Shown in pieces: positions 1 to 64,000 of a DNA stretch of 64,000 nt (positions are counted from its first letter, which is position 1; each line of letters starts with the position of its first letter). This stretch comes from a virus. Made by a program: the position numbers and the translations under genes. The notes beneath the pieces were generated by a model. It saw only the letters and a list, made by a program, of their open reading frames with translations, did no database searches and was not told the DNA's origin. The stretch lies in IMG/VR virus record IMGVR_UViG_2881214049_000001. One strand, 5' to 3'.

Positions 1-100
1 GGAAGCCTGTGATTGAGTCGTTTGGGGTCACAATATACAGTTTAGCATCTGGTACTTGTCCAGACTCGAGTGCTTCTAAATCTAGTGTATAGTCGCTCAT
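1..100 (-). CDS. 5' part of a probable tail/baseplate gene (MSDYTLDLEALESDKYQMLNCIFVTPNDSITGF...), runs off the window
   Basis: ATG at 100 with GAGGT Shine-Dalgarno, directly after the tape-measure-like stop; frame open to the edge. Confidence 0.55.
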   Translation of the reverse strand, partial: MSDYTLDLEALESGQVPDAKLYIVTPNDSITGF

Positions 101-107
101 ATAACCT

Positions 108-3100
108 CTAATCGAATAAGATACTGTTCATTATCGCAATCCCATAGTCATCGATGCCAAAACTACTTTGAGCTGGTGTTGAACGACTTGCTGGGCGATT
201 TAATTGCACCGACTTGCGTGATGCAGACACCGGTTTTACAGTACTACTTGCTGGCAATTTCTTCGCAGTGGCCTGTGTGTTGACCACGTGCGAGAGTGTA
301 TCTTTGCGCAGAACTTGGTCGTTAAGTGGCTCTGGTATCGATGTTTTGGTATCTATTTGCAGTGATGATGCAAGGTTGGCAACTTCTGTTTGTTCCCTTT
401 TCTCTTTACTTTGCTCGTGTTTGGCTGCTGTGTGAACGCGTGAGCTATGCGTCGGTATGTGTTGCTGTACCATCATCTGACCGGATGCTGGGGTGGTGGC
501 TGCCTGTGTGTGTGGTTGTGTCATCATCGTCAACGGTATTGCGGCGGCTTTGATTAAACGAGTTGACTGTGATTTTGAACTTTTCGTTGTACCCTGAGGG
601 TCGTTGGAAAAAAGCCCTGAAAATAGGTGACTGCCAAGGTTCACCACCTTAGAGCCAACATCGTACAAAGTGCGCGCGGTATTTCCTTCATCCAGTTGAC
701 CAAATGAGATCCCGGACAAAATAGAGCCAGCTGCTGATGCGACTTTCTGACCTGTGCTGGCTTTTTCATTTGCTTGCAGTGCAAAGTTTTCATCTGCACG
801 TTGCCATCCAGCTGCGCCATCTAGTAAAGCTAAACCCGCCGTGAGTGCTTGACCTGCTATTGGAACAAGTTTAGCTCCTCCAAGTACTGCTCGCCCCAAC
901 CCTTTCATTGATGGGAGTCGGCTTGAAATAGACTTACTGGTATGCGATAGAGCCTTACTCACCGTTGATTTACCTTGGGTTGTTTTCCTGCGTCGGCTTT
1001 GCGCTTTTACTTCAGATCCAAGACGAGGCTTAGCCTCTCTTCTATGCGCTTTTTTATGGCTAGTATCCGGTGCACCGCTGAGTGCGGCCATTCCACCTGT
1101 CGCTAATGATGCTATGCCTGAAACTGCAGCGCTTGCGCCTCTTGATAATGTAGATATAAAGGAGCGACCAGTGCCGAGACGCTTCACTACCGTAGGTCTC
1201 GCTTTATTGCTGCGGCCATTCCGTTTACGATTAGTGCGCTTCTCTCGTTTGCTGGTATGCTTGTCTAGTAAATTGCCTAATAAATTATCCGCTGAGCCAT
1301 CCTTTGGAAGTATGGTTTTGAACAAGCGTAATGTTTGATTCAGTTCTGACAGCGACTCCTTTTGTTCAGCGAATAACGAAGCGCCCAGATTAAGAAGTCG
1401 GCCCGTGATATTGCCTTGTTGACCTTGAATTCGAGTAGAGCGTGGATCCATTTGACTGGCTGCGTTTTTAGCAGTGTCGTGGGCTAATGATGCACCAAAC
1501 AGGCTGGCGACCTGAGTGATAACTTCATACTTGTTCAGCAAGCCTGTTGTCGTCGTTAATCGAGGTCGTGTGTTGCTGCGCGTTGGTGCTTTGCTGTTAC
1601 CTGACAATAACCGCAAACTCATCCTCCCATGTAGGGGAGACAGTTTTGTTGTTGGGCGTTTATCTGGATTGGCTACGTGGGTGACATGTAATGGCAAATA
1701 CTCAGTTGCTAGTTTGGCTAAAGACTGTGTAGGAGCGGCTGCCCAAGTAGTGCGATTAGCTTTCACCTGATGCGCGCGCTTTTGATGTGCTTGCTTACCT
1801 TGAGCTGACGTACGTGCTTGGTTTGCTCTTTGTTGGTTCGTATGGGCAATATTCTGGTGAGCAGCTGAAGTTCGCTTGTCACCTTGAATAACTAGCGTGC
1901 TGCCTTTATCAATGGTAATTTGGGCATTGTTCAGGTGCAGTGTTTTGGGTGCTGCAACACTTTTTGTAGAGACAGACGCATTAGGGTTAACGTCGCTCGC
2001 AGTGATCCCTCCCAGCAGCGCGGTGGTTTTAACGCGACCTTGTGGTGGTGCAATCGTTTTTTGACCGTGGGTAGATTTGGCCGTGTTGCCAGGTGGTTGC
2101 CTGGTCGCAAAAAGCTCTGTCACTGACCCCATCACACGCTTAGCCAAGCTTTTGTTTTGTGGCTTGGCAATACGTTTATCCAGTTTGGCAGTCTTAGGGT
2201 TACCGCCACTAAACAATGCTTTGAGATCGAGTATATTTGGTAGGTCATCAAGACCGAGTGTACCAAGTGCGACACGTAACCATTCATGCTTGTCAATGTT
2301 CAAAATCGACTGCTGCTCTGCGCGCCTATTTGAAGCCTCGCGATTAACCTGGGGTTTATGTCGCGGCTTTGTCGCTTGTCTAGTTGCTGTTACTCGTTGC
2401 GTTTGCAGCCGTGCAAAGGCCTCATTTACTGTACCTAGAATATTGAGCTTAGCTAGAGCAGGGGGAGCTATTTGCTCTTGTGGGCGTGGTGAGGTTGATT
2501 GTTTAATAAGTGTCTGTAATATCGCCTGCTGTGGCTTTGGTGCATCAACTAGCATTTCTTTATAGCTATTGGTCATACGCCCTTGCGTGATGGGCGTAGT
2601 GCTTTTTTGTTGCTGATTAAATGCACTAATCAAGGGCGCACAATCGGACAGCAACTGACGAAGAGAGTGAGTCTCTAAACGCTGTCCCTTGAGTAGCGTG
2701 TCTATATTTACAGAGGTAAGCGCGCTCGACTTTGTTCCGTTTATTTTGGCAATCGCCTGCAACTGCGTGCTGAGGCTACGTAATGCCGCATTGAGTAGCG
2801 CGTGTGTTTCCTCTGCGTGCTGTTGAGTGGGCACGGCGGCTTTTGCTGCACTCACGGGGAGCTGTGAGCGACTTTGTATCTCAGAATTTGGTTGTCGAGT
2901 GTTTTTGTTTTGGCTGTGGTGTTTGGGCACTGACGGATCAAAGGTGGATTGTGCGGTGCCTACGCCAATGAGCGCAGCTTTTGTTGAAATCACGGTGCTG
3001 CTAGTATTGCCCCGCATCATTGCGGTGTCAGTTGGTGCAAGCATAACAGCCGCTTGTGAAGCGCGTTTTGCAACGGTTGCTGTACTGCTATTTGGTGCGA

Positions 3101-4073
3101 CTTGATTAACGTCAGATGACTGTTTTCCTGCACCTTTTTGACTGGTGAAAAGCGCATCAAAATTAACCAGTTCTGGTAAGTCATCAAGCCCAACTGTGCC
3201 CAGTGCAACCTTAAATAACTCTTTTTTGTCGATGTTGAACAAGCTTGGCTTGTCTTTTGTGGTGTCTGAGTTATCTTCTTTGTTGTGCAGATCTGAGCTT
3301 CGTCTGGCGCTTTTTAATGCCCGAGATTGTTGAGATTGCTTTTGTTGCTTCTCACTCTGCGCTTTTATATGGCTAGCAAGTTCTGTGAGCGTGCTATCCA
3401 TATGAGTTAATACATTGAGCTGTGCGTGATCAGCAGCGGCATTTTGTGACAATAAATCTAAGGCCGAGTGGCACTGTGCTCGCTGGCTTTGATCTTTGCT
3501 TAATTGTAACTGTGCACTATATTGTCTCGCGATATCCTGAACTAAAATTGGATGATCGCTTTGCTGCTTGGCATTAAAAGCCTTGATCATTGGCCCAAGC
3601 ATTTTCATTGTGGCGCGCAATGCCTCGATTGACAGATCTTGCCCTTGAAGGAGCTTATCTATATTCAGCGCATGGGGAACATTTTGTAGAGACTGTCCTG
3701 TGTTATGTTGAGCCGTTTTTAGTTCATCCAGGTTCAGAGCTTGCAATTGGACAGTAAGGCCCCTTACCACGGCATTGATCAAACCGGTCGCTATATTTTT
3801 GGGGAGTGTAGTTAGAGTTGGGTATGATTGCCCATTGGAGATAGGAGTATTAGCCTGTCTCGTATTGGGGGAGGGGCTTTTGAAGCGAGCAAAAGCTAAC
3901 TGCAAGCGTTTTGCCAGCACCGCGAACTCTTGAGGCTGCGCTTGGCGCGGCTCAAAAATGCGAATACCGCTTGGCTGCGTGCTGTTAATAGTTGTGACGT
4001 TACCCAAATTAGGGAGGCTTAGCGCATTTGACTGACGTAATTTGTCAATGTGGCGCACAGCGATGTTAGCCAT
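108..4073 (-). CDS. Tape-measure-like tail protein (~1320 aa) with an internal duplication
   Basis: Downstream of tube and chaperone genes; Ala/Gln/Lys/Ser-rich; C-terminal Gly/Ala helical segment (GLGRAVLGGAKLVPIAGQALTAGLALLDG) typical of tape measures. Start moved to ATG 4073 (GGAG RBS). Confidence 0.62.
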   Translation of the reverse strand: MANIAVRHIDKLRQSNALSLPNLGNVTTINSTQPSGIRIFEPRQAQPQEFAVLAKRLQLAFARFKSPSPNTRQANTPISNGQSYPTLTTLPKNIATGLINAVVRGLTVQLQALNLDELKTAQHNTGQSLQNVPHALNIDKLLQGQDLSIEALRATMKMLGPMIKAFNAKQQSDHPILVQDIARQYSAQLQLSKDQSQRAQCHSALDLLSQNAAADHAQLNVLTHMDSTLTELASHIKAQSEKQQKQSQQSRALKSARRSSDLHNKEDNSDTTKDKPSLFNIDKKELFKVALGTVGLDDLPELVNFDALFTSQKGAGKQSSDVNQVAPNSSTATVAKRASQAAVMLAPTDTAMMRGNTSSTVISTKAALIGVGTAQSTFDPSVPKHHSQNKNTRQPNSEIQSRSQLPVSAAKAAVPTQQHAEETHALLNAALRSLSTQLQAIAKINGTKSSALTSVNIDTLLKGQRLETHSLRQLLSDCAPLISAFNQQQKSTTPITQGRMTNSYKEMLVDAPKPQQAILQTLIKQSTSPRPQEQIAPPALAKLNILGTVNEAFARLQTQRVTATRQATKPRHKPQVNREASNRRAEQQSILNIDKHEWLRVALGTLGLDDLPNILDLKALFSGGNPKTAKLDKRIAKPQNKSLAKRVMGSVTELFATRQPPGNTAKSTHGQKTIAPPQGRVKTTALLGGITASDVNPNASVSTKSVAAPKTLHLNNAQITIDKGSTLVIQGDKRTSAAHQNIAHTNQQRANQARTSAQGKQAHQKRAHQVKANRTTWAAAPTQSLAKLATEYLPLHVTHVANPDKRPTTKLSPLHGRMSLRLLSGNSKAPTRSNTRPRLTTTTGLLNKYEVITQVASLFGASLAHDTAKNAASQMDPRSTRIQGQQGNITGRLLNLGASLFAEQKESLSELNQTLRLFKTILPKDGSADNLLGNLLDKHTSKREKRTNRKRNGRSNKARPTVVKRLGTGRSFISTLSRGASAAVSGIASLATGGMAALSGAPDTSHKKAHRREAKPRLGSEVKAQSRRRKTTQGKSTVSKALSHTSKSISSRLPSMKGLGRAVLGGAKLVPIAGQALTAGLALLDGAAGWQRADENFALQANEKASTGQKVASAAGSILSGISFGQLDEGNTARTLYDVGSKVVNLGSHLFSGLFSNDPQGTTKSSKSQSTRLIKAAAIPLTMMTQPHTQAATTPASGQMMVQQHIPTHSSRVHTAAKHEQSKEKREQTEVANLASSLQIDTKTSIPEPLNDQVLRKDTLSHVVNTQATAKKLPASSTVKPVSASRKSVQLNRPASRSTPAQSSFGIDDYGIAIMNSILFD

Positions 4074-4101
4074 ACAAGTCTCCAAAATGTAATGACTCGG
4101 T

Positions 4102-4272
4102 CTACTGGCCCGAGTCTAAGTATTTACGTAATCGTTGTTGTAGCAGCATTGCCATACCAAAATCGAACTTGGCCAGTTCGGTGGGAGACAATATCTGCTT
4201 AATTGCCAAACCGAACTCGACTTCCAGTAGTTGGTTCAGATTTGCGAAAGGGATTGATAAGGGCCGCCTCAT
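4102..4272 (-). CDS. Unannotated 56-codon ORF overlapping the chaperone 3' end; gp51-like peptide or frameshift extension
   Basis: Translates MRRPLSIPFANLNQLLEVEFGLAIKQILSPTELAKFDFGMAMLLQQRLRKYLDSGQ*; fills the gap before the tape-measure gene; no clear RBS. Confidence 0.55.
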   Translation of the reverse strand: MRRPLSIPFANLNQLLEVEFGLAIKQILSPTELAKFDFGMAMLLQQRLRKYLDSGQ

Positions 4273-4963
4273 CGTCTAGAGAAGCTGAAAAAACAATGCC
4301 ACATTCAGTATTGGCACAAGTTACCGCCATAGGTTTTAAATCGTGATATAAAAACTTGTCGATGTCCTCTAGTGTGGCCGCGTCATCGCCAATGGCATTG
4401 TTAAATAAATTATATGCCAACTTGTAATCAAGAGATGACTGCATTGCAGCGATAGCGACTGGGTCTTCATCGGCATTGCGTCGAGTCAACTCTAAATACT
4501 GGCCGACCGTGAGGGGTTTAAATTTAACGTCTGTCATGCCACATAAATCAGCGATAACGGGTAATTTAGGTGCCGCTAGGTCTTCAAATTGCAAATTTTC
4601 CCAGCCAAATTGATGTTGCACACTATGTTGACACTGTGGACATTCAACATTCAAATTAAACTCTACGGCATTCATTGTGCTCAAACGACGTAACAAGGCA
4701 ATGTATAAAAAATCAAAAAATGTGATGTCTTCGCGATCCATTCCTTCTACGCTAATACCATTCAGGATTTTTTCTGTGCTTTTTGCACTAGACATTGTGC
4801 CTTGTGCCTGGGAAAACATCTTTACTTCGCCAAATGTATATGGCTTGTAGTGTATTTCTGTTCCAACAGGGTAAGCTAAACCACGAGAGGGCAATTGTGC
4901 CACTTTTACCATGGTATCAGGTAGGTTGCTTTCTTTGTCTAGTGCTTGTTGTAATTCATTCAT
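4199..4963 (-). CDS. T4 gp26-like baseplate hub / tail assembly chaperone
   Basis: LPSRGLAYP start, YKPYTFGEVK, LRRLST, CPQC and CANTEC zinc motifs, VKFKPLTVGQYLE; lies between tube genes and tape measure. Confidence 0.65.
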   Translation of the reverse strand: MNELQQALDKESNLPDTMVKVAQLPSRGLAYPVGTEIHYKPYTFGEVKMFSQAQGTMSSAKSTEKILNGISVEGMDREDITFFDFLYIALLRRLSTMNAVEFNLNVECPQCQHSVQHQFGWENLQFEDLAAPKLPVIADLCGMTDVKFKPLTVGQYLELTRRNADEDPVAIAAMQSSLDYKLAYNLFNNAIGDDAATLEDIDKFLYHDLKPMAVTCANTECGIVFSASLDDEAALINPFRKSEPTTGSRVRFGN

Positions 4964-5566: not shown

Positions 5567-6073
5567 TCACTTTTTTGTTTGGCTTAAAATACCCAGTACC
5601 TTGAAACTTATAGTATTTTCATGGCTGCCGCTTTCACTTGTGCCTGAAAAATTTAAGTCGCCATCAGGTATTACCATGTAAACTGTCTCTTTGGTTGGCT
5701 TTCTTTGTGCGTCTAACATTCTTACTTGTAGGTAACGAACACATTCATGGGCGGTGCGCACAAATTTACCCTCACCAAAAATATCTTTGTTTACCCAGTC
5801 GCTTATCCAGTGCTTTATCGAATGCTCGCTATCATCAATAAAGCTGATATCTACAGTGGTCTCACTGGTACTTTGTGGCACACTGTAAGATGAAAGATAA
5901 GCTTCAAAGGTAAAGCTTTGTGTTGTTGCTAAATTTTCGTTGACTGTTGTAGCTGGGAACCAATTCGTGAACTGCCCCGGCCCAGAGTTACTGCGGTCTA
6001 TGAGCCTGCAGTCCCATAAGTAGTCTTTAGCCCAATCAACATTACGTACTGATTCCATCGAAAAATCAGCCAT
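5567..6073 (-). CDS. Tail-tube-fold protein (gp48/gp54-like tube initiator)
   Basis: Pattern parallel to the neighbouring tube gene (YLWD, DISFIDD, I..W...V); GGAG RBS before ATG 6073. Confidence 0.6.
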   Translation of the reverse strand: MADFSMESVRNVDWAKDYLWDCRLIDRSNSGPGQFTNWFPATTVNENLATTQSFTFEAYLSSYSVPQSTSETTVDISFIDDSEHSIKHWISDWVNKDIFGEGKFVRTAHECVRYLQVRMLDAQRKPTKETVYMVIPDGDLNFSGTSESGSHENTISFKVLGILSQTKK

Positions 6074-6153
6074 AGACCAGTCTCCGTATTTACACAACGA
6101 TTACGTTGTGTATTGTACAATATATTAAAGCAAGTTTTATATTGTACAAAGTT

Positions 6154-6184
6154 AAAAAAAGGGGGCGCACTCGCCACCCTTTTT
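6154..6184 (-). terminator. Rho-independent terminator after tail tube gene
   Basis: Minus strand GGGTGGCG-AGTG-CGCCCCC followed by T7. Confidence 0.75.
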
Positions 6185-6214
6185 GTTGCCACACGAATAT
6201 TACTTTATGGTTGC

Positions 6215-6745
6215 TTACTGTACAGAAGCACCAGCGCCCATTTTGAAGTAGTCGTATGATAAAGTTAGGCTCGGGCGCATGATATCTGACGTATCACCAC
6301 CTAGTTCACCGCCCCAGTCCACGCTTTCTAAATAACAACCAAATAGCTTGTAGGTCCAGATTGGCTCGTCCTGATTATTTAGACGAGTTAGCAGCATATC
6401 ACATTGATATTCCGCACGTTTCTTTTGTTTACCTATGCCTGTTTCCCACAGCGCTTCACGCCAGTTGTGAAGCATATTGTGGATAGTGTTATCGACAGTT
6501 TCAGCAAACGTGAGATTGATTGTGTGATCATCATCCACAATACCTGCTTGCTTGATATGGTGACCTCGGATTTGAATATCAATGCTCTGCACGGCGCTTG
6601 TTGGCAGTGAGCTTGATAAACATCGTACGTTTAAGTCGTTACGGTCGAATGCAACTGCCGGAGGGGGCGTGAACCAAACATCCCACTTATACAGAACAGC
6701 AAAGTCGTCTAAGTTACGGATCTGTTCAATTTGTAAACCAGCCAT
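6215..6745 (-). CDS. Tail tube protein (gp19-like)
   Basis: Immediately after the sheath; motifs LNVRCLSSSLP, TINLTFAET, WTYKLFGC, LTLSYDYF. Confidence 0.85.
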   Translation of the reverse strand: MAGLQIEQIRNLDDFAVLYKWDVWFTPPPAVAFDRNDLNVRCLSSSLPTSAVQSIDIQIRGHHIKQAGIVDDDHTINLTFAETVDNTIHNMLHNWREALWETGIGKQKKRAEYQCDMLLTRLNNQDEPIWTYKLFGCYLESVDWGGELGGDTSDIMRPSLTLSYDYFKMGAGASVQ

Positions 6746-6805: not shown

Positions 6806-8680
6806 TTATGCAGCCAGTAACTGTTCTGCTAGGCTAAAATCTAAACCGGTTGGTAGTACTGCTGTGGTGAATGGAATATATTCAATACTGCGGGTCGGTT
6901 TAACAAATAGCCATAAGTTCATGCGGCCAGCATCAATGTCTTCTGGTGTGTTGTTTGAGTCGTCACAAACGACTTTAAAGTCATATACGCCTCGACGTGC
7001 CTTGATGCCATTCATGTATGACGTAACCATGGCACTTGCGATAGCACGTGATGACTCGTCGTTTAATTCAAACAAGAAGTTTTCTAGTGCATCGCGTACG
7101 GCCGGTTCTATGGTGATTAACATCATACGAACGTTGATTCTATCGAGTGCACTTGGCATTGAGCTCAGGGTTTTTTGACCCCAGATCAAGATGCCTTTAC
7201 CTGCTGCAAAGCGCAGCGGATTAATACCAGCGGCGTATAGGCGATCCATTTCGCCTTTATCGTAGCGACGGCGTACATCGAGTACTTTGATCACACCACG
7301 GTTAAGGCCAGCTGCTGGGTACCAAGCTTCTTGGTTCATTGCAGTGCGTGATACCGCAAGTGCCGCATAAGCTTCAGGTGAAACAAAGACAGCACGATTG
7401 TTGAACTTGTCGAATATCTTAACGTGTGAGCTGTAAATTGCGCCAAATGAGCTGTTTGCATTTAATACAAGGTTACGATAATCAACCACTTCATTCAGGT
7501 AGTTGCTGCTTGCTTCAGCGCTGTAAGGCGTTGACAGAAAAGCGAAACAGTCCATACGTTTTTCACATAATGCAAGTAATGCTTTTTGATAACTTGGTAC
7601 CGCATAGCCGCCGTCCATAAACAGCTTGATTGGGTAAGTATCAGAGTTTTCAAACTCTTTTAGCGCTTGCATCATGTGGCCCGCCATGACTGCGCCACCT
7701 AAATCACCACCTGCAAAACCAATCGCGTTAAGCACGTGATCAGCCGGCTCTCCTACATAACTTGGGTTTGCGAAACCACGAATGTAGTTAGATTGCTCAA
7801 GTACGTTATCCAAAAAGATATTCTTGTTGAATCCATCTACCGCATCTTCACGTAACGCACAGGTAAATGATTCAACTGGGTTGGCGCTATCATCTAGATA
7901 GACTTCTAGTACGAATGTATTTGGCGTGGTGGCCACTGGTGAGAATAATGACATCACAATGTCACCTTGACCAGCATCGGTAAACGTTACGTACTCTTCG
8001 TCAGCTAATGCTTGTGCAGAGGTTGCCAATCGGATCTTGCCGCTCTCTTCACTTTTGACATAGTAACCGCGATCGCCAGAGATGCCGGTTGGTAGTCTGT
8101 CATCTTCCGCTTGCTTTATCACGGCTAAACGCACCACTGAGCCCGTAGACCAAGCCTGCGTAACTGCTAGGCTGCTATCAAGTACTTCAGCATCAGCTTC
8201 ATCAGTAACTGTATTAAACGCAACTTTTTCTGCTGTACGATAGTTGTGTACTTTTACTGACAGGCGGTTACCCCATGTGCCTTGATCTGCTGCTGTCAGG
8301 ATGAATGCTTGTGGTGAAGCAGCTTTGATATCTAAGAAATCTTCGAAGCCATCTGCAATTGGCTTAGACTCTGTTTCAGAACCCATTTCGCCAATCGCGG
8401 TTGCTGCGAACTTTGCACCATCACCAAGTACACGACGAATGTACAATTTGTCTGCGCCGCCAAGATAAGTCAGTGCAGAGTAGTGTGCGTTGTCAGCACC
8501 AATTTTAACCTTACCATCAACCGTGTAACGGTTTAAAAAAGTGTTTTCACTGGTACATAGTTGCGGTTCTAGAGAACCTCTTTCAGCTTGTGGTAATAAG
8601 ATTGCGGCGTACATGCCGGCTTCTGAACCTACACGCTGAGATAAATTTAATTCTTTAAGAATGACTTGTGCAGATGACAT
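6806..8680 (-). CDS. Contractile tail sheath protein (gp18-like)
   Basis: WYPAAGLNRG, GINPLRF, GILIWGQKTL, DRINVRMMLITIE, FELND, GVYDFKVVCDDSNNTPEDID, VKPTRSIEYI. Confidence 0.95.
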   Translation of the reverse strand: MSSAQVILKELNLSQRVGSEAGMYAAILLPQAERGSLEPQLCTSENTFLNRYTVDGKVKIGADNAHYSALTYLGGADKLYIRRVLGDGAKFAATAIGEMGSETESKPIADGFEDFLDIKAASPQAFILTAADQGTWGNRLSVKVHNYRTAEKVAFNTVTDEADAEVLDSSLAVTQAWSTGSVVRLAVIKQAEDDRLPTGISGDRGYYVKSEESGKIRLATSAQALADEEYVTFTDAGQGDIVMSLFSPVATTPNTFVLEVYLDDSANPVESFTCALREDAVDGFNKNIFLDNVLEQSNYIRGFANPSYVGEPADHVLNAIGFAGGDLGGAVMAGHMMQALKEFENSDTYPIKLFMDGGYAVPSYQKALLALCEKRMDCFAFLSTPYSAEASSNYLNEVVDYRNLVLNANSSFGAIYSSHVKIFDKFNNRAVFVSPEAYAALAVSRTAMNQEAWYPAAGLNRGVIKVLDVRRRYDKGEMDRLYAAGINPLRFAAGKGILIWGQKTLSSMPSALDRINVRMMLITIEPAVRDALENFLFELNDESSRAIASAMVTSYMNGIKARRGVYDFKVVCDDSNNTPEDIDAGRMNLWLFVKPTRSIEYIPFTTAVLPTGLDFSLAEQLLAA

Positions 8681-9115: not shown

Positions 9116-9802
9116 TTAATCGTTTGCAGGCTGTGCTTTAGACTCGCAAAGAAGATGGAGGTTTACCCCCTCAGAAGCGAAAATATTGGTGATTAACGCC
9201 AAAGTTTCATTCTTTGATACAATGAACGGCCCCCTCACTATAACTTCTGCACCAATGGATTTGGTTGCACTGTCACCAACGTCGACAGTAAAGTCTTGTA
9301 GGGCTTTCCAAGTAAGTTTGTATTCAATTTGTCCGATATCGGGAATATCAACACTAACTGCACTGATTTCACGCAAGCCCCCTGCCACGCTGTAGAGCAT
9401 TTCAAAGCGTTCTAATTCTTCCATGGAAGAGGTGATATACATAAACTTAAAAGTCATGTCACCGAATAGCACGGGGTATTTGTCCACAGCGGTTTGGCAC
9501 TGATGCGGATTGAGTGGATTTTCAGAGCGATATTTTTTTGCCAGTAATGTGTGACCACTTCGCCCAGCATATATGTCATTATTGCTGATGGTGGAGCGGT
9601 TAAATAGCAGCAATGGCAGCGCGGTTGGGTCTATCACTTGTTTTTTTTGATTCGCTGTGCGAAAGGCGCGCAAACCATCTTGATAGTCAAGTGATGGCGT
9701 GAATATCGCGTTGACATTAGGAAGGTAGTTACCTATTTCTTTGAGTAGATAATAGGTTACCAACGAAGGGGTTGCGACGACACGTGTTTGCGGATCAGTC
9801 AT
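9116..9802 (-). CDS. Probable tail completion / terminator protein (gp15-like)
   Basis: Sits between neck and sheath; ~230 aa; GGAGG RBS at ATG 9802. Product inferred mainly from synteny. Confidence 0.5.
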   Translation of the reverse strand: MTDPQTRVVATPSLVTYYLLKEIGNYLPNVNAIFTPSLDYQDGLRAFRTANQKKQVIDPTALPLLLFNRSTISNNDIYAGRSGHTLLAKKYRSENPLNPHQCQTAVDKYPVLFGDMTFKFMYITSSMEELERFEMLYSVAGGLREISAVSVDIPDIGQIEYKLTWKALQDFTVDVGDSATKSIGAEVIVRGPFIVSKNETLALITNIFASEGVNLHLLCESKAQPAND

Positions 9803-10265
9803 GAAGTTCCTCCGCCTCAATAGGCAATAACGCGAGCTTGTTCATCAAGCATTGTGTCACTCCCAGTGTGAGGGATTGTTTGACTTTGTAGGAAAATATT
9901 TTCCCATCACTACGCTCAAAAGTGAGCTTGTCTCCTGGTTTGATATCTGCTTGCGCGTACACCTCGACTTTTTTCGCGCTACCTAAAGCATGTGTGCCCT
10001 CAAGTACCCAGCCTCGAGAGGGAGGAATTATTTTTGCGCGAAATTCCTTAATTTCAAAGGGCGAATTGGGTCTTGTTGACATGGGCCCTGTATGGCCACC
10101 ATAAACACTGGCGATGGCAGACTGGGGGTTAAGCGTCTGAGGTTGCGATGACGCAACTGATACTTGGCGAGATACCTTGACCTCCACACCAAACATATTG
10201 ATCAAGGTGGGGAACATGGAGGCACTCCACCGACTGATGGCAGATTCAATATTAGGATATAGCAT
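9795..10265 (-). CDS. Probable head-tail joining / neck protein
   Basis: Synteny; beta-rich C-terminus (IKPGDKLTFERSDGKIFSYKV) like head-closure proteins. Confidence 0.45.
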   Translation of the reverse strand: MLYPNIESAISRWSASMFPTLINMFGVEVKVSRQVSVASSQPQTLNPQSAIASVYGGHTGPMSTRPNSPFEIKEFRAKIIPPSRGWVLEGTHALGSAKKVEVYAQADIKPGDKLTFERSDGKIFSYKVKQSLTLGVTQCLMNKLALLPIEAEELHD

Positions 10266-10318
10266 TTACAAGTCTCTTTGCAGTTATCAAACCATATTAT
10301 TGTACAATAACTGTTATT

Positions 10319-44918: not shown

Positions 44919-44961
44919 ATAAAAAGTGAGTGCAACAATTGATTATGCAATCACTTTTTAT
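44919..44961. promoter_or_regulatory. 16-bp inverted repeat upstream of parA (candidate operator or centromere)
   Basis: ATAAAAAGTGAGTGCA-N11-TGCAATCACTTTTTAT, one mismatch. Confidence 0.6.
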
Positions 44962-46260: not shown

Positions 46261-46305
46261 GCGAAGCTCGGCAAAATTCAGTGAAAATGAGAGTGGAGCG
46301 ACAGA

Positions 46306-46719: not shown

Positions 46720-46728
46720 GGGCTTAAA

Positions 46729-47034: not shown

Positions 47035-47117
47035 TAACAGTGAGTATAACGCTGTCTCTGGAATCGCGTATGAGCTTGAGATGAGAAATACATTAACCCA
47101 TTAAGGAGACTCATCCA

Positions 47118-51030: not shown

Positions 51031-51280
51031 CTTAAATACCCCTAAATATCTACATGTCTCAGTTAACAACCAAATCATGAAGAGGTAGTAGATATTATAT
51101 TGTCACATTTGCATTATAATTTGATAGATATTGTACAATTTAATTCTATCGATTCGATAACAGATTAACGTCACTAAATTGGTAGAGGGCAGTTATATGA
51201 TTTTCTCTATTGTACCACGGTGCGCTTAAACACTCGCAGCGCAAAAACGAAAACCTACTTTATAACCGACTAAGTAACAT

Positions 51281-53678: not shown

Positions 53679-54002
53679 ATGAGTAACATACAATATGCAA
53701 CGAATGAAAATGTCCATACGCTAATCAATCAAGGTTACACATTGGTTGCCTACTATGCGCCTTGGTGTGGCCCTTGTAAACAGTTGGGACTCGCACTAGA
53801 GGCGCTGCCCGACACATTGACGCAACATCTTACTATTGTGAAAGTGAATATTGACGAATGTGGCGATGCGTTAAAGAATGCGAGCGTTGATGTGATACCA
53901 ACTCTGCACTTTATGCTCAATGGCAATGTTATCGAGAAAAACATTGGTGCAGTGATCAAACCAAAACTGATGCAGCGGATCGCAAAAGAGATCCATCGCT
54001 GA
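53679..54002 (+). CDS. Thioredoxin
   Basis: YAPWCGPCK active site; VKVNID; IPTL; GGAGG RBS. Confidence 0.92.
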   Translation: MSNIQYATNENVHTLINQGYTLVAYYAPWCGPCKQLGLALEALPDTLTQHLTIVKVNIDECGDALKNASVDVIPTLHFMLNGNVIEKNIGAVIKPKLMQRIAKEIHR

Positions 54003-59137: not shown

Positions 59138-60499
59138 TTATACTAAGCGGATCTTGGTAATAAAACTTGGTACAAGCACATCAATTGCAGACCATACTGC
59201 AGCCGCTCTTTGGTTAACCAGCGGGTTAACACCATGCGGAAGTGCCGATGTAACAACAAGTGGCATATAAGGCGCGCTAACCAATGCACTTTCAAAATTT
59301 GACTTACCTTTATAAACACAGACTGCCGTATCAGCATCCATCACCTGTTGATTAGGCACACGTACAATTAAGATACCATCTAAAATACCGAAAATGTGTG
59401 GACCTACAGCAGCGCCGTCAGAAAGCTTAGTAAAGCCAGGTAAAGTTGCTGCCAATGCACAGACATTACGTCCCGCAACCATTGCCGAAATAGTGCCTCT
59501 GCCTGCATTATTTAAAATAGTCGCTTCAGCTTGCGCAATAGCATCTTTAAACCCTTGTTTGTGATCATTATAACTAATACCACTGGGTGCATTTTTCTTA
59601 AATGTCACCTCCCCCTGCGCTTTAGCTAATAACATGCGCGTAGCCGTATTCATTTGCTCTGAGTTAATGGCAGCGACGAGGTCTTGTGCAATTTCATCTT
59701 CGGCTACCATGCCAAAACGGCGGCGTAAAGCATAGGACTGCTGTAAACCAATCGTGTCTTTTAACGCCCATAAACGTGCTTGAACCGTTTTAGATGCAAA
59801 CTTCATCCCTACTTTTGGAATGTCATCTGCCGCGTCATAATCACCACTATATGCAGCGGTAATGGTATGCTCCGCCTCTGGCGCATGCTTTGTCGATAAA
59901 GTAACCGTACCATTGACGTAATCAATGGTGCCTTGAATATCGAAACCAATTAACTGACCTAACCCATTGTCTTGCGCAACTAAATTCAACTCTGCGATTT
60001 CAACACGTACAGAACCTACTTGCACAGGCGCATTTTTTAGCGAGAAGCTGTAGTCGCTCTCACCTGCTTGGGTTTGACCAAGTGCTTCACCCATCACATT
60101 TGACGTTGCAGACACACCTGATAATAAATCACCTGAGTTAAGCTGTGAGTCGCCGGATACAATATTCTTGAAGTAAATGGTGCCTTGTTCTTCATCAATT
60201 GGTTGAATTGACGCAATAGCAGATAAAGGTGAAGTACCGTAGGCGACAGTAAGCACATCCAGTGCAACATCTGGGATCTTACCCAACTGAGATAATGTGC
60301 CATCTTCTTCACAAAGCCGCTTATACACTTGGAAGTTTTCAAGTTGCTTACCCAACGCATAGACATCCGTTGTATTAATTGCACGCACTTTACTCAATAA
60401 AGAGTTTCTTTCTAATGCTTCGACAAAAGGCTTGTATTTCGTGAAGTAGTGATCTGCTTTGCGCTCAATTGCTTGGCCCGTTACGGTTTCTTGTAACAT
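59138..60499 (-). CDS. Major capsid protein (T4 gp23-like)
   Basis: LSAIASIQPIDEEQGTIYFK, KTVQARLWALK, EIAQDLVAAINSE, APYMPL; GAGG RBS before ATG 60499. Confidence 0.9.
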   Translation of the reverse strand: MLQETVTGQAIERKADHYFTKYKPFVEALERNSLLSKVRAINTTDVYALGKQLENFQVYKRLCEEDGTLSQLGKIPDVALDVLTVAYGTSPLSAIASIQPIDEEQGTIYFKNIVSGDSQLNSGDLLSGVSATSNVMGEALGQTQAGESDYSFSLKNAPVQVGSVRVEIAELNLVAQDNGLGQLIGFDIQGTIDYVNGTVTLSTKHAPEAEHTITAAYSGDYDAADDIPKVGMKFASKTVQARLWALKDTIGLQQSYALRRRFGMVAEDEIAQDLVAAINSEQMNTATRMLLAKAQGEVTFKKNAPSGISYNDHKQGFKDAIAQAEATILNNAGRGTISAMVAGRNVCALAATLPGFTKLSDGAAVGPHIFGILDGILIVRVPNQQVMDADTAVCVYKGKSNFESALVSAPYMPLVVTSALPHGVNPLVNQRAAAVWSAIDVLVPSFITKIRLV

Positions 60500-60580
60500 G
60501 GTAATGTCCTCAAAATTCATAAAAAACTATCAACAGCACTCGTTGGATATAACGAGCATTCATATTAGGAGTAAGCTGTA

Positions 60581-61711
60581 TTACTGTGTCGACTCAAACA
60601 ACGAGCTTAATCGACTTGTGCCTGTATTATCTTGGCTATCTGACAGCACTACGCTGTCTTCATAATTGACGGAAAAGTTTGCATATAACTGCTCAGACAA
60701 AGAGCCTACTCGTGTTCGTGCAGTCGAGTATTGCCCACCTATTTTGCTTAACGCTGCTTGAACTTCACATACGCTACCTAGCTTTTTATAGTCTTCTAAC
60801 TGCGCCATCATACTCGAGTTGAGCTGGCGAACTTCCGCCAGTGTTTGTTCCAGTAACTCAATATGCTCAGCCTGTGTTTTTGCCTGCTCATTTAGCGAAT
60901 CATTTTTGCTACGCAGTGTCGCATGTTCGGCATAAGCTTTTGCCAGACTCTCTTCAACGTGGCTTTTCTGTTTCGCTAGAGCCGCAATAGTAGATGCACT
61001 CTCACTCATTACAGTATCCTTAACGGGGTTAGTCTTTAACGGGGTCTCATTCTTTTCATCCACACTCGTTTGAATGCTGGTATTGGCCAGCTCAAGAATG
61101 GACTGATGTAATTTTGTGGCCTCATCATCGAGCGATTCGACCAACGAGGGAATAGCTTGAGCAACACCTGGCTCTTGCACGAAATCAAAGGTTTCAAGTA
61201 CAAAGCTGGTTTCATCTATCACCGGGGCATTGTCTCGTTTGTATGGCGTATAGCCTCCATAACCCCGACTAGATACAGGAAATTGCACACCGCCTCGAAG
61301 ATAGGCGTTCAGTACTCGACCAGCTGGGGTATTTAACACTAAGATTTCACCCATTCCTATGCTGTTTTTCTCATCAATCCATAATTTAGAGATCCGATGC
61401 GATGCCCTTCCTTCCAATAGAGCCTGATCATCAAGTGCCTGCGTATGGCCGATTGTGCCCAACATAGTTCCTGATGATATTTTAGCTTGGCTGCGCTCGA
61501 TAGCAGTACGCCATAATTCACGCGTATAAAAACGGCCATTGCGAGATGTACCATCGACTAGAAAAAATGGCCCTACAACACGCGCCAATATGCCTACTCC
61601 ATCTACCTGTGATGTTTCTTGCAAACCTTGTGTATGTTCAGACGCTTCACTGATCTGGTAGATCACATTAGACGTATCGAACGCGTCGATAAATAGTGTA
61701 CGCTCTGTCAT
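60581..61711 (-). CDS. Prohead protease (T4 gp21-like) with C-terminal coiled-coil scaffold
   Basis: SRNGRFYT, GTIGH, RASHRISKLW, ILVLNTPAGRVL, PVSSRGYG, FDFVQEPG; coiled-coil tail. Confidence 0.9.
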   Translation of the reverse strand: MTERTLFIDAFDTSNVIYQISEASEHTQGLQETSQVDGVGILARVVGPFFLVDGTSRNGRFYTRELWRTAIERSQAKISSGTMLGTIGHTQALDDQALLEGRASHRISKLWIDEKNSIGMGEILVLNTPAGRVLNAYLRGGVQFPVSSRGYGGYTPYKRDNAPVIDETSFVLETFDFVQEPGVAQAIPSLVESLDDEATKLHQSILELANTSIQTSVDEKNETPLKTNPVKDTVMSESASTIAALAKQKSHVEESLAKAYAEHATLRSKNDSLNEQAKTQAEHIELLEQTLAEVRQLNSSMMAQLEDYKKLGSVCEVQAALSKIGGQYSTARTRVGSLSEQLYANFSVNYEDSVVLSDSQDNTGTSRLSSLFESTQ

Positions 61712-61719
61712 GCGCTGCC

Positions 61720-62433
61720 TCATTTAAACTCTAATTTTTCACGCAGTCGTTGTACAATGTCTTGCTTAGAATCATTGTTGTACAAATGGTGCTGTGAATC
61801 TTGCAACCACTGCACAGCATCCACTGTACAGTTGGCTTTGTTGAACGCTTTTCCTAGCTCAACCGGATGGACTAAAGCTAGCAAAATACATAGTTCGTCT
61901 TCTTGCAAGGGTAAGTTAGCTTCACCCTTTGTTGATAAGCTGTCTATTTGCAACCATTTCTGCTCAATATTGAGCAGCATTGGGATGGCGATATCCGTCA
62001 CCTGCTGCCACTCTATGTGGTGACTTAACGTCTGGTACTCCTCATTCCCAGTGTATAGCAAGCTGCGTAGGGACGACACTGCATTTAACAAACGCTCCCG
62101 AACAATTAGCAGGCTTTTTTCATCCTGCCCGCAGATCCGAACAGCTAAATGTCGTCCCAAAATTTTGTGCATTCGTTTTCCAGCCGTACGACCATGAAAT
62201 CGGCTAGCAACACGCATCAGCATCGCATTATTTACAACTGAGCCATGCGCTATGCACTCACTTCTAGCAAAGTCACTGGCGCCATAAACTAAGCGATTTC
62301 TTCGCTCAATAAAAGCATCCAAAACATCTTCGGGGATCTGTTCTGGCGCCCTCCCATCCTCATCAATCAAGTCAAGCTGACCCACTTCGCACAATAACAG
62401 TACCCGCTCAGCAGGCTTTGCAAACCTCATCAC
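61720..62433 (-). CDS. Hypothetical head-module protein between portal and protease
   Basis: 237-aa ORF overlapping the portal stop. Confidence 0.65.
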   Translation of the reverse strand: MMRFAKPAERVLLLCEVGQLDLIDEDGRAPEQIPEDVLDAFIERRNRLVYGASDFARSECIAHGSVVNNAMLMRVASRFHGRTAGKRMHKILGRHLAVRICGQDEKSLLIVRERLLNAVSSLRSLLYTGNEEYQTLSHHIEWQQVTDIAIPMLLNIEQKWLQIDSLSTKGEANLPLQEDELCILLALVHPVELGKAFNKANCTVDAVQWLQDSQHHLYNNDSKQDIVQRLREKLEFK

Positions 62434-64000
62434 TTCTCATTACTCATTTTCACTCTAGCGTCGCGTTTCACTGATGTTTCACTTTGTATTGGCTCAGCAT
62501 TATTTGCTGTTTTGCTTTGTGATAATTGCTGAACAGCGGTGTCTACTAACTGCCTTAGCGAAGCTTCATCCATATGCAATGCTTCTAATGGCTTGCGTTT
62601 AGGCTGGAGATTTTTTTTTGCTTCTACGGGTTGCTTCTTGGCCCCTGAAGCCGCTTTTTTTACGGGTTTATCGAGCACAACACTATGGGGCTCATCGGTT
62701 TCTCTAGTAACCAAAAACGGGTCTAGCACACCAACCATATTTAATTGACGCCTGATCCACTCGAATACGGCTTTGAAATCAACTTTATCTTGAAAATGTG
62801 CCGAATCATCCAGATCCTGCATAAACGCCAGTAAATTTGATACAGAGAACAATACCTGTTCTGTTGACTCGAGCTGATCAAGCGCCTCTAAGCCCACTCC
62901 CTGACGGCTGAAATGAACTTGGATCTCTTGTACAGAACACTGAATGCCTTTTTTCGCTAAGTGCGTCATTGCAAGTTGTTTTAAACCATTTGCCAAGGCA
63001 CCTTGAATTGATTTTACCTTTCGTAAGTAACGCGTATGACGTTTTTCAAACTCTCCTTGAGATTGTAAGGTTTCACCACCAAAGAGTAATTCAATCGGCA
63101 CTCCTATCGACGCGCATACTGCTGCTCTAATATCACGGATACACGCGAGTAAATCATCAATATTTACGGTGTCCGGTACATCCATTCCCTGCAGCGTCCC
63201 CCTATCACCAAACACAGGTAACACTTTTGCTTTCCCTGCGGTGGCCATAATATCTCCCACCGTTGTCAGTGACTGCGCCTCACCGTTAAACGTGGTTTTC
63301 TGATTCAATAAACTTTCATAACGTCTGGCGATGTTAAAGGCTTCTTTAGGCTCCGTGGCGCTTGGGATCGACACCCCAACCAAAGACCGAGTACTTAATT
63401 GATGCAACTTACTTGCCGGCACCAGCGCTTCAAGTAGTTGAAGCTCCTTTAGTTTTGACTGTACACCAAAAAGCAGCGGTTTACCCACTCGCACATAGTT
63501 AGGTAGCATTTTGGTGGCAAGGTGCTGCTTATCTCGCACCGATACTCCCAATTCATCGCCCAGGTCGACACGAAGTTTATTTCGCCCAAGAGCAAAATGC
63601 AGGTGAGAATTTGCGGGTGTGATACGGATACGCTCTTGTTCTCGAACTAAGAATTTGGCTGGCATTCCATGACGATATAATGCCACTACATCATTTTGTG
63701 TAACATCATCGATCACTTCGCTCACGCCATTGGCATCAGCAATAAGACGTAGTGTGTAGTCGCCATACTTTAGCAGATCTGGAGTCACATCTTCACAAAG
63801 TTGATCAAGATTAATCTCTTTTTGTAACGCGCTCAAAGCAGCTTCAACATCCTTGTTGCTACTATGGAGATTTACGATACAACCATGCTCGGGGTCGGCC
63901 ACCAATACTTCATCACATATCAGTGAGTGCATTGCATCAACGAGGTAATAAGTGGATAGCTCTTCAACTGTACGGCTGTAGTCACGCTTGGTGCTCGCAG
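62430..64000 (-). CDS. Portal protein (T4 gp20-like), 5' end beyond the window
   Basis: Frame stays open upstream of 63932 (...RDYSRTVEELSTYYLVDAMHSLICDEVL), matching the gp20 N-terminal helix; LLKYGD; IRAAVCASIGVPIELL. Confidence 0.82.
   Translation of the reverse strand, partial: ASTKRDYSRTVEELSTYYLVDAMHSLICDEVLVADPEHGCIVNLHSSNKDVEAALSALQKEINLDQLCEDVTPDLLKYGDYTLRLIADANGVSEVIDDVTQNDVVALYRHGMPAKFLVREQERIRITPANSHLHFALGRNKLRVDLGDELGVSVRDKQHLATKMLPNYVRVGKPLLFGVQSKLKELQLLEALVPASKLHQLSTRSLVGVSIPSATEPKEAFNIARRYESLLNQKTTFNGEAQSLTTVGDIMATAGKAKVLPVFGDRGTLQGMDVPDTVNIDDLLACIRDIRAAVCASIGVPIELLFGGETLQSQGEFEKRHTRYLRKVKSIQGALANGLKQLAMTHLAKKGIQCSVQEIQVHFSRQGVGLEALDQLESTEQVLFSVSNLLAFMQDLDDSAHFQDKVDFKAVFEWIRRQLNMVGVLDPFLVTRETDEPHSVVLDKPVKKAASGAKKQPVEAKKNLQPKRKPLEALHMDEASLRQLVDTAVQQLSQSKTANNAEPIQSETSVKRDARVKMSNEK

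Follow-up and report, generated by a model that had tools for sequence, protein, structure and literature searches.

A terminase-less circular plasmid of Pseudoalteromonas peptidolytica with a T4-superfamily virion module: probably a packaging-defective form within an undescribed lineage of jumbo phage-plasmids

Can a myovirus with a T4-type virion live as a plasmid, and if so, is it still a phage? The question is raised by the 64,000-nt stretch of DNA analysed here (the window; IMG/VR record IMGVR_UViG_2881214049_000001), in which an earlier note saw a candidate temperate T4-like phage maintained as a low-copy plasmid prophage. Jumbo and T4-superfamily phages are regarded as strictly lytic. 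The curated phage-plasmid groups have virions of lineages other than the T4 superfamily, and the words temperate, lysogen and phage-plasmid are absent from a 2026 jumbo-phage review.

The window covers about half of a circular 128-kb plasmid from Pseudoalteromonas peptidolytica and is collinear with plasmid NZ_CP072685.1 of strain SCSIO 43201 (circular, 128,275 bp; 99.3% identity over 64,008 aligned columns), whose published genome comprises two chromosomes and one plasmid. In strain DSM 14001, the whole of contig 15 (128,281 bp) is the same element, and further copies were retrieved as a 127,643-bp IMG/VR record and a 129,719-bp contig. What is said below on parts of the element beyond the window rests on these near-identical copies. 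Overall, near-identical copies are known from isolates dated 2015–2024 and from marine metagenomes of 11 studies. Start or break points differ in all three copies compared (circular record, contig 15 and IMG/VR record), and each is bridged by the other two. Since the element makes up entire contigs with differing break points, it is extrachromosomal, as a phage-plasmid sensu Pfeifer et al. (2021) has to be. The earlier note had named chromosomal integration with a decayed par locus as one finding that would speak against it, and neither was seen: the element is a circular plasmid in a complete genome and forms self-contained contigs without chromosomal flanks elsewhere, and its par operon is real, with no nonsynonymous change in ParA among the copies. 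Dispersed repeats of the host are present within the element, and a megablast search of cultured phages with 25 kb of the window gave no matches. The host species is a known inducer of coral larval metamorphosis; no connection of this trait to the plasmid is claimed.

A larger relative was detected in P. umbrosa. Its contig NODE_9 (202,601 bp) has a terminal overlap of 121 bp, indicating circularity, and a coverage of 48.0 versus 21.0 for the 1.7-Mb contig, or ~2.3x the chromosome. The two elements are homologous from end to end and have a common par/Rep/recombinase backbone. In P. umbrosa, TerL is encoded immediately upstream of the portal, and a family A DNA polymerase (PolA), DnaB, a gp32-like protein, ribonucleotide reductase (RNR) and ligase are also present; cumulative GC skew reaches its minimum next to the Rep homologue and its maximum opposite. 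The full set of key phage functions expected of a phage-plasmid, terminase included, is therefore found on the P. umbrosa element, which bears all hallmarks of a jumbo myovirus that lives as a low-copy plasmid prophage. Of the low-copy plasmid that had been proposed for P. peptidolytica, the circular plasmid with a ParA/ParB operon was confirmed, and low copy number is likely there by analogy with P. umbrosa, the relative in which it was measured. Further relatives occur on a 400-kb metagenome contig and, in P. citrea, on a 103.7-kb contig; P. citrea is absent among the best 120 MCP homologues listed, which is a hint only. TerL-bearing relatives are found in the same genus and in seawater, and every relative has TerL directly upstream of the portal.

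The features of the window are listed in Table 1. Head genes of the gp21 and gp23 types had been described, and both the S77 protease and the Gp23 major capsid protein (MCP) score above the Pfam cut-offs. The MCP is 72% identical to its P. umbrosa homologue, 56% to that of Rhizobium phage RHph_TM30 and 23% to T4 gp23. The supposed gp20-type gene is a portal by its identity to that of RHph_TM30, but the T4 type itself was not recovered above the Portal_T4 cut-off; in a complete copy, it aligns over its full length with the P. umbrosa portal. Among the tail genes, the sheath (gp18), the tube (gp19 type) and the gp26-type hub stood, but a gp13-type neck gene did not: the three genes upstream of the sheath matched no Pfam or PHROG family and have homology to unnamed RHph_TM30 genes. 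The large tail protein has a partial homologue in the P. umbrosa element. Pfam and PHROG searches with the 2837-aa protein retrieved no match. The six phrog_12249 paralogs have P. umbrosa homologues (57–76% identity) in the same order and a pN/pS of 0.02, and one of them contains a hypervariable segment. The gp286 homologue is intact in the window and frameshifted in the SCSIO 43201 record. Four accessory genes are of host type (Hfq-like, SecB, HU and thioredoxin), the last three with homologues on the P. umbrosa element; the UvsW-like helicase is 57% identical to its homologue there, which is split in two ORFs.

Table 1. Features of the 64,000-nt window, in order of position, with the evidence for each
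Feature	Position	Strand	Evidence
Large tail protein, 1325 aa, tape-measure position	108-4085	-	Between hub and distal tail genes; phrog_26249 E 8e-13
Baseplate hub, gp26-type	4199-4963	-	T4_baseplate PF12322 33.4 bits (cut-off 24.5); phrog_150 'baseplate hub'; 31% to RHph_TM30 gp293
Second, tube-like gene	5567-6097	-	30% to gene next to RHph_TM30 tube
Tail tube	6215-6745	-	phrog_45 (phrog_45/4542 'tail tube' E 4e-18 for tube and tube-like gene together); 46% to RHph_TM30 tube
Contractile tail sheath	6806-8680	-	Phage_sheath_1 and _1C; phrog_23 E 3e-75; 39% to RHph_TM30 sheath, 28% to T4 gp18
Three neck/tail-completion genes (234, 156, 164 aa)	9116-10813	-	Position and weak homology to RHph_TM30 gp287/gp288, directly upstream of sheath
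Giant 2837-aa protein, lineage-conserved	10866-19379	-	30% homologue (3393 aa) in P. umbrosa element; pN/pS 0.14
Six paralogous genes, phrog_12249 (PHROGs label 'tail sheath')	19628-27894	-	E 5e-32 to 3e-58
223-aa homologue of RHph_TM30 gp286, head-tail region	29167-29838	-	tblastn matches at both ends
Hfq-like gene	37019-37273	-	Pfam Hfq E 2e-9
Third par-operon gene, RHH-type DNA-binding protein, 191 aa	41493-42068	-	RHH-like strand-helix at residues ~28-65; CopG_antitoxin E 0.0047; PGAP name YlcI/YnfO
ParB/Srx-family partition protein, 537 aa	42061-43674	-	Invariant G209-E210-(R/K)-R212-x-R214 (box II) in four homologues
ParA partition ATPase	43693-44799	-	Pfam AAA_31 E 5e-20, CbiA, MipZ
17-nt inverted repeat upstream of parA, candidate operator or parS	44918-44962	.	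Arms 94% complementary; AAAAGTGA motif recurs nearby; putative function
Endolysin, GH108 and peptidoglycan-binding domain	45356-45904	+	Glyco_hydro_108 E 2e-25, PG_binding_3
SecB	50081-50587		Pfam E 7e-43
HU	50743-51078		Bac_DNA_binding E 2e-25
Thioredoxin	53679-54002		Pfam Thioredoxin E 1e-20
UvsW-like DEAD/DEAH helicase, 948 aa	54087-56933	-	Pfam DEAD and Helicase_C; phrog_6819 E 2e-52
Major capsid protein, gp23 family	59138-60520	-	Pfam Gp23 E 3e-14
Prohead protease, S77/gp21 type	60581-61723	-	Peptidase_S77 30.5 bits (cut-off 27); phrog_207 E 2e-31; 40% to RHph_TM30 protease
Conserved 237-aa head gene, portal-protease interval	61720-62433	-	29% to RHph_TM30 gp280, equivalent position
Portal, 5' end beyond window	62430-64000	-	38% to annotated RHph_TM30 portal; Portal_T4 17.2 bits, below cut-off

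RHph_TM30 (Cuauhnahuacvirus, 207 kb), the sole member of the Kleczkowskaviridae compared, has in the same order a portal, the 237-aa gene, an S77 protease, a gp23-family MCP, neck, sheath, tube, hub, baseplate and fibre genes, at 22–56% identity. The virion module is thus syntenic with that of the family, but gene content is not shared genome-wide: only 20 of the 118 plasmid ORFs (17%) and 26 of the 206 P. umbrosa ORFs (13%) have counterparts in RHph_TM30 (E < 1e-5). These common ORFs are structural or TerL and, weak matches to RNR, ligase and SbcD aside, the replication core is not among them. Unlike the element, RHph_TM30 lacks a ParA homologue, encodes 20 tRNAs and its own replisome, and has a contiguous structural module; in the element, TerL is absent and other genes, ~50 kb in all, interrupt this module.

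The likeness to T4 and other Straboviridae lies at the profile level, in the gp23 MCP, gp21 (S77) protease and gp26-type hub families. BLAST aligned the sheath (28%), gp25 (30%) and gp23 (23%), the last being the only member of the T4 core head set that it saw, and weakly; T4 gp17, gp19, gp20, gp21 and gp26 as tblastn queries had no match on the element. Gene order differs from that of T4, the T4-type replisome (gp43 family B polymerase, gp41/61, gp44/62/45 and gp32) and gp17 are absent, and T4 has no plasmid functions. Because the T4 link is made by profile HMMs and BLAST barely detects T4, 'T4-like' is an overstatement. A place in the T4 superfamily is supported by the gp23-family, S77 and hub profiles, but the true kin are Kleczkowskaviridae-like jumbo phages.

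The parA-parB-RHH operon was recognized in full: ParA by Pfam, the ParB-like protein by motif and fold, and the 191-aa gene, which overlaps the parB-like stop by 8 nt, by its RHH-like N-terminus. The nearest relatives of ParA are those of large plasmids, and no ParA homologue was found in cultured phages. No Pfam family matched the ParB-like protein. However, a Foldseek search of the PDB with its AF2 model returned ParB, KorB, Noc, Spo0J or sulfiredoxin chains as all of the top 44 matches, and the P. citrea homologue carries the name ParB/Sulfiredoxin domain protein. With its Walker-type ParA and, next in the operon, a ParB bearing the CTP-binding GERRxRA box, the locus has the proteins of a type I ParABS system; the 17-nt inverted repeat upstream of parA is a parS candidate, and no repeat array was found near the operon. 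Elsewhere, the element encodes a Rep candidate, with homologues on plasmids only, and a large tyrosine recombinase (630 aa) upstream of the portal, at the position of TerL in the relatives. The Rep and origin assignments come from an embedding/structure look-alike search and the plasmid-only homologues, with no curated family, and phmmer against the PDB gave no matches for either the Rep candidate or the recombinase. The replication and partition genes expected of a phage-plasmid are thus present as ParA, ParB/Srx and the Rep candidate. A linear plasmid with a protelomerase, an idea prompted by the recombinase and a palindrome, was dropped because three assemblies bridge each other's ends.

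In comparison with P. umbrosa, the 128-kb plasmid lacks terminase, DNA polymerase A, DnaB, gp32, RNR and ligase. Searches of the element and of the entire DSM 14001 genome by tblastn with RHph_TM30 and P. umbrosa queries retrieved no TerL or TerS homologue, and P. umbrosa queries detected no TerL or replisome remnants in the plasmid (E > 0.1). A six-frame search with Pfam Terminase_6N also had no match on the element. This negative is weak alone, since the lineage's own TerL also escapes Pfam, and the decisive negatives are the tblastn searches that used TerL of RHph_TM30 and of P. umbrosa. None of the tested ORFs matched a terminase in Pfam or PHROG, and just one plasmid-specific ORF, encoding a 370-aa protein without any match, is of sufficient size for TerL. 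The recombinase–portal junction is crossed collinearly by contigs from two more isolates and a metagenome, all of them assembled contigs. Structural genes and an endolysin are present on the 128-kb element, which does not contain the full phage function set, packaging included, of a phage-plasmid. As both the large terminase and the phage replisome are absent, a packaging-defective derivative is likelier than a functional temperate phage, and the temperate phage of the earlier note is not supported for the 128-kb element.

Two further parts of that proposal, an XRE/cI-like regulator and an origin in the window, were not recovered. Pfam searches with the window ORFs of at least 80 aa and ten smaller ones retrieved no XRE/cI-like repressor, a near-identical copy scanned in six frames for HTH_3 had a single weak match, outside the window, Peptidase_S24 was not found on the element, and a crude HTH regular-expression scan had no match in the window. 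For a 164-aa gene beside a 28-bp palindrome, the AlphaFold model was unusable (pLDDT 38). TRF detected no iterons in the window, where the short repeats of AT-rich gaps resemble chance pairs, and the turn of the cumulative GC skew at ~32 kb is a maximum, not a minimum. Positions 45356-47660 were considered and rejected as a lysis cassette: the endolysin alone is supported, no holin was found among the next four genes, all of which lack a transmembrane segment, and the last of them is fibre-like.

The genes that remain are under purifying selection. Head, tail and par genes have pN/pS values of 0.02–0.26, except for the 1325-aa tail gene with the module's highest value (0.42), and dN/dS is 0.08–0.29 in every block. 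No internal stops were found in the ORFs of at least 80 aa that align gap-free. Constraint is strongest in the tail, baseplate and fibre genes (pN/pS 0.02–0.08), compared with 0.26 for the portal, the 237-aa gene and the protease (Fisher p 3e-4) and 0.07 for the MCP. A dead phage would not be expected to show strong purifying selection over ~75 kb of structural genes; its presence here suggests that particles are still made and still matter.

Considering this gene content, we judge it probable that the element belongs to an undescribed lineage of jumbo phage-plasmids as a reduced form with a packaging defect, that is, a phage-plasmid on the way to becoming a plasmid. In this reading, a lineage of marine jumbo myoviruses with a T4-superfamily virion module, nearest to the Kleczkowskaviridae, would have acquired a plasmid backbone made of a plasmid-type Rep candidate, ParA, ParB/Srx with its RHH partner and the large tyrosine recombinase. 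The P. umbrosa form would be the complete hybrid (202 kb, with terminase and its own replisome), plasmid-prophage-like at about two copies per chromosome. The P. peptidolytica form would have lost ~70 kb, including TerS, TerL, DNA polymerase A, the DnaB-like helicase, the gp32-like single-stranded DNA-binding protein, RNR, ligase and SbcCD-like genes, and its vertical inheritance as a plasmid would follow from the loss of packaging and replication genes. Replication may proceed by Rep from an origin outside the window, segregation by ParABS and multimer resolution by the recombinase. Heads, tails and endolysin are probably still expressible, whereas self-packaging of DNA would be impossible.

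Alternatively, the element could be a functional temperate phage-plasmid in which the plasmid Rep and the host replisome replace phage replication, as in P1, and the terminase is too divergent, novel or encoded elsewhere. We regard this as unlikely. It would fit the intact virion genes, all under purifying selection in four copies, the presence of an endolysin and the promoter-like TTGTACAA motif of the lineage, which still precedes the portal and many structural genes, and the spread of near-identical copies over the years and studies given above is compatible with horizontal transfer. The strong selection on structural genes also leaves room for an unrecognised or trans-acting packaging ATPase. 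However, no TerL or TerS homologue or remnant was found on the element or in the host genome, the one candidate of TerL size matches nothing while all relatives keep TerL upstream of the portal, and no repressor was found.

It is likewise improbable that the element is a domesticated or helper-dependent source of particles, either tailocin-like or gene transfer agent-like ones serving the host or ones packaged upon superinfection by a terminase-bearing relative. Strong purifying selection on structural genes without a terminase would be explained, as would the greater constraint on tail, baseplate and fibre genes than on head-assembly genes and the hypervariable segment in one of the six paralogs, and terminase-bearing relatives do occur in the same genus and in seawater. 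However, head-assembly genes also evolve faster between species (32–54% identity versus 68–77%), so that their higher pN/pS need not mean relaxation, and a tail-only function leaves the tight constraint on the MCP unexplained. The portals of the two forms are 49% identical, which argues against easy cross-packaging. That the element is no resident plasmid, being instead a prophage in the chromosome or a phage, lytic or in the carrier state, that was sequenced along with its host, is very improbable: a tyrosine recombinase is encoded and IMG/VR has a copy as a viral record, but the element is a closed circle in a complete genome and forms equal-length contigs without chromosomal flanks in independent assemblies, it encodes ParA, ParB and a plasmid-type Rep, contains host-specific dispersed repeats and lacks terminase and replisome, and the coverage of its relative is just 2.3x that of the chromosome.

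The reduced phage-plasmid that we favour is comparable with P1-type phage-plasmids (Pfeifer et al. 2021; Pfeifer and Rocha 2024), whose myovirus genomes are likewise maintained as circular plasmids at low copy number and encode Rep, ParA and ParB in an operon, and a tyrosine recombinase (in P1, Cre). The element is unrelated to P1 in sequence, however; its virion genes belong to the gp23/T4 superfamily, genome size in the lineage extends into the jumbo range (202 kb), and neither a phd/doc-type addiction system nor C1-type immunity was found on the element. P1-like phage-plasmids shed phage genes and persist as plain plasmids (PMC10879196). Unlike such derivatives, the element keeps the entire structural set, with the packaging and replication genes alone missing. 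The ~80-kb p0908-type Vibrio plasmids (PLSDB) are also marine and non-mobilizable and encode a distant gp23-like MCP (22–23% over two thirds of the protein), but they are very distant and much smaller. They show that this element is not alone among marine plasmids in encoding a gp23-like capsid. No described phage-plasmid group was found to contain it, in agreement with the little-described group that had been supposed.

More tentatively, there may be an undescribed Pseudoalteromonas jumbo lineage (128–202 kb, perhaps up to 400 kb) that lives as ParABS plasmids, with a terminase-less derivative species-wide in P. peptidolytica whose particles could serve a purpose other than autonomous spread, namely a domesticated function or helper-dependent transfer; this is possible, although we hold it to be less likely than not to apply in full. 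The combination is unusual in that packaging and replication genes alone are lost while ~75 kb of head and tail genes are still selected, and it raises, in the culturable type strain DSM 14001, the question of what purpose is served by particles whose encoding element cannot package itself. The 128-kb element would document, in nature and in datable form, how a phage-plasmid becomes a plasmid. Circular and present at about two copies per chromosome, its 202-kb relative combines a plasmid backbone with a complete phage gene set and would bring a plasmid-prophage lifestyle to jumbo phages.

The whole window is collinear, at 99.3% identity, with positions 16,733-80,725 of NZ_CP072685.1, the circular 128,275-bp 'plasmid unnamed' of Pseudoalteromonas peptidolytica SCSIO 43201, whose published genome comprises two chromosomes and one plasmid (PMC10672970). 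In the type strain DSM 14001, the element makes up the entire contig 15 (128,281 bp); a further copy is a 127,643-bp IMG/VR record, and another assembly has it as a 129,719-bp contig. Each of three copies (the circular record, contig 15 and the IMG/VR record) has its start or break at a position of its own, which the other two span; this fits a circular molecule without chromosomal flanks. The extrachromosomal state supposed in the earlier note is borne out by these records. Element 31-mers were retrieved from 20 public runs of 11 studies, covering isolates and marine metagenomes. The capsid gene is confined to 2 of the 140 species representatives of Pseudoalteromonas, and the element is therefore a sporadic mobile element rather than a chromid.

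The plasmid encodes a 630-aa tyrosine recombinase and a 535-aa Rep candidate with homologues on plasmids only. Together with ParA, these form the plasmid backbone, in which the roles of Rep, recombinase and origin are predicted. ParA is most similar to ParA of large plasmids and has no homologues among cultured phages. The Pfam scan was silent on the 537-aa protein of the same operon. Its alignment with three homologues revealed an invariant GE(R/K)RxR box, and the 44 best PDB matches of its AlphaFold model (pLDDT 63, with a better core) were exclusively ParB, KorB, Noc, Spo0J and sulfiredoxin chains; this assigns it to the ParB/Srx family as a partner protein. The 191-aa protein carries an RHH-like strand-helix motif at its N-terminus. 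Operon, box motif, fold and RHH-like motif thus uphold the ParA, ParB and RHH assignments made earlier from the sequence.

ORF listing and family scans depict a gene-dense window, largely encoded on the minus strand, with tail genes clustered at one end and head genes at the opposite end. The gp23-family capsid, S77/gp21-type protease and portal genes, as well as the gp26-type hub, tube and sheath genes, confirm the head and tail modules previously proposed. The portal is full length in the complete copy of the plasmid.

Features of the window and of the plasmid that contains it
Feature	Position (nt)	Remarks
1325-aa tail protein	108-4085	Tape-measure position
gp26-type hub	4199-4963	Pfam T4_baseplate above cut-off
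Two tube-type genes	5567-6745	
Sheath	6806-8680	
Three small genes	9116-10813	Neck position
Six paralogs	19628-27894	
ParA	43693-44799	Operon with 537-aa and 191-aa proteins
UvsW-like helicase	54087-56933	948 aa
Major capsid protein (MCP)	59138-60520	gp23 family; Pfam Gp23, E 3e-14
Prohead protease	60581-61723	S77/gp21 type
237-aa gene	61720-62433	
Portal	62430 to window end	
2837-aa giant gene	Between tail and head ends	
Hfq-, SecB-, HU- and thioredoxin-like genes	Between tail and head ends	
GH108 endolysin	Between tail and head ends	
535-aa Rep candidate	Plasmid 126,332-127,939, outside window	Resembles ESM Atlas replication-initiator clusters

One of the six paralogs (657 aa, 20905-22878) contains a hypervariable cassette, a segment of ~670 bp (~21642-22314) that is unalignable between copies and is flanked by sequence 98-99% identical; the difference lies between the window and SCSIO 43201 on one side and DSM 14001 and the IMG/VR record on the other. 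Genes 29167-29838 and 28447-29031 are intact ORFs in the window and two further copies, while the SCSIO 43201 plasmid record shows 1-2 indels and split or shortened CDS annotations, which may reflect either genuine frameshifts or errors of long-read sequencing. Two gene pairs, 33095-35788 (438 and 439 aa) and 38994-40752 (345 and 249 aa), yielded no Pfam or PHROG matches.

The P. umbrosa B95 contig of 202,601 bp is homologous to the 128-kb plasmid over its full length, and its 121-bp terminal overlap indicates that it is circular. Assembly coverage was 48.0 compared with 21.0 for the 1.7-Mb chromosomal contig, a copy-number measure for this relative only. Its cumulative GC skew reaches a minimum next to the Rep homologue and a maximum diametrically opposite. 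Both elements have Rep, ParA, ParB-like and recombinase genes. The P. umbrosa element also encodes TerL, directly upstream of the portal and 43% identical to the Rhizobium phage TerL, together with a putative small terminase, DNA polymerase A, a DnaB-like helicase, a gp32-like SSB, RNR, an NAD-dependent ligase and SNF2 and SbcC-like proteins. Its UvsW-like helicase is encoded by two adjoining ORFs (656 and 335 aa) instead of one. Both gene pairs are kept, the 345 + 249-aa pair being duplicated.

Among cultured phages, the nearest relatives by capsid protein (56% identity) are the ~207-kb Rhizobium phages of the Kleczkowskaviridae. In the one genome compared, RHph_TM30, 20 ORFs are homologous to the element, in the same order and all structural, amounting to 17% of the element's ORFs. 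This lytic phage has a 321-aa gene annotated 'partition protein' (stretch L065, 15859-16824), yet no ParA homologue, and a CDS annotated 'cro-like repressor' (stretch L067, 7887-8138). When T4 proteins were compared with the element by tblastn, only sheath, gp25 and gp23 (E 3e-4) were detected; 'T4 superfamily' is therefore correct at the profile level, whereas the label 'T4-like' is not.

A 138-kb marine IMG/VR fragment has head, terminase, replication and par genes in common with the lineage, and a 400-kb marine metagenome contig (ERZ27315289 k141_37242, 400,011 bp) at least the head module. In the latter, the capsid gene is 74% identical and is preceded by protease, 232-aa and portal genes, with a 636-aa ORF further upstream. 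CheckV completeness was 30-33% for the 128-138-kb records, with which the size of the 400-kb relative would be consistent. A related contig in a third species, P. citrea (GCA_005887445.1, PNCK01000009.1, 103,692 bp), encodes endolysin, ParA, ParB-like (50%), 189-aa, 627-aa and Hfq-like proteins and the 438/439-aa pair. Since the 120 best MCP homologues listed include no P. citrea capsid protein, reduction may have gone further still in this element.

The XRE/cI-like repressor and in-window origin of the earlier note found no support. Pfam family scans detected no HTH_3 in any window ORF, and a six-frame HTH_3 scan of a near-identical copy gave a sole weak match ~1.6 kb outside the window; S24 domains were likewise absent. 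A repeat search retrieved no iterons, and near 32 kb the cumulative GC skew turns at a maximum rather than a minimum. The window contains 34 copies of the palindrome TTGTACAA where 2 are expected (none of 100 shuffles attained 34), mainly directly 5' of genes (e.g. 6113, 19471, 38347, 61750 and 61778). The P. umbrosa element, the 138-kb fragment and the 400-kb contig carry it at a similar density (0.5-0.7 per kb), and the 28-kb RHph_TM30 structural module has no copy; the motif is probably a promoter or operator specific to this lineage. A 28-bp palindrome based on it (38337-38364) separates the divergent genes 37789-38271(-) and 38448-38942(+), both kept in the P. umbrosa element, a layout that makes this locus a candidate genetic switch. 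For the adjacent 164-aa protein, family scans were empty and the predicted fold was unusable (pLDDT 38).

Two stretches resemble host sequence: ~107 bp at 40914-41020, in the gap following the 345-aa gene, match many P. peptidolytica chromosomal loci at ~80%, and 165 bp at NZ_CP072685.1 1675-1840, outside the window, match more than 40 at 91-95%. Both are dispersed (MITE/REP-like) host repeats that entered the element, and their presence argues for long residence.

Searches by tblastn for terminase and replisome genes, read from near-identical copies of the window's element, gave no match with E below 0.1 on the 128-kb plasmid and none at all across the complete DSM 14001 genome. The site occupied by TerL in relatives, upstream of the portal, holds the recombinase gene on the opposite strand, and uninterrupted contigs of two additional isolates and one metagenome run straight through this junction. 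TerL adjoins the portal in every other relative, including the Rhizobium outgroup (the 400-kb contig shows the 636-aa ORF at this side), so parsimony favours a loss within the lineage of P. peptidolytica.

Across four near-identical copies (dS 0.01-0.05), dN/dS was 0.08-0.29 in every block, and ORFs of at least 80 aa aligning without gaps contained no internal stops. With each polymorphic codon counted once, pN/pS was 0.00 for ParA, 0.02 for the six paralogs, 0.07 for MCP, 0.08 both for neck to hub and for baseplate and fibres, 0.26 for portal, 237-aa gene and protease, and 0.42 for the tape-measure-position protein. The low values indicate that constraint on the structural genes persists in an element without terminase; the higher values of head-assembly genes may reflect only their generally faster evolution.

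At the lineage level, the core idea of T4-superfamily virion genes on a plasmid replicon was right. This lineage is probably new: it is not covered by the curated phage-plasmid groups and literature searched, and the jumbo-phage literature checked does not discuss plasmid prophages. Purifying selection on virion genes keeps two alternatives alive, namely that an unrecognised or trans-acting terminase packages the element, or that it specifies a domesticated or helper-dependent particle. The evidence effectively rules out chromosomal integration as well as carrier-state contamination. The best reading of the window's element is a reduced derivative that would persist as a plasmid, unable to package DNA alone; the selection on virion genes is the part that this reduction leaves unexplained, and P1-like phage-plasmids that became plasmids offer a parallel (PMC10879196).
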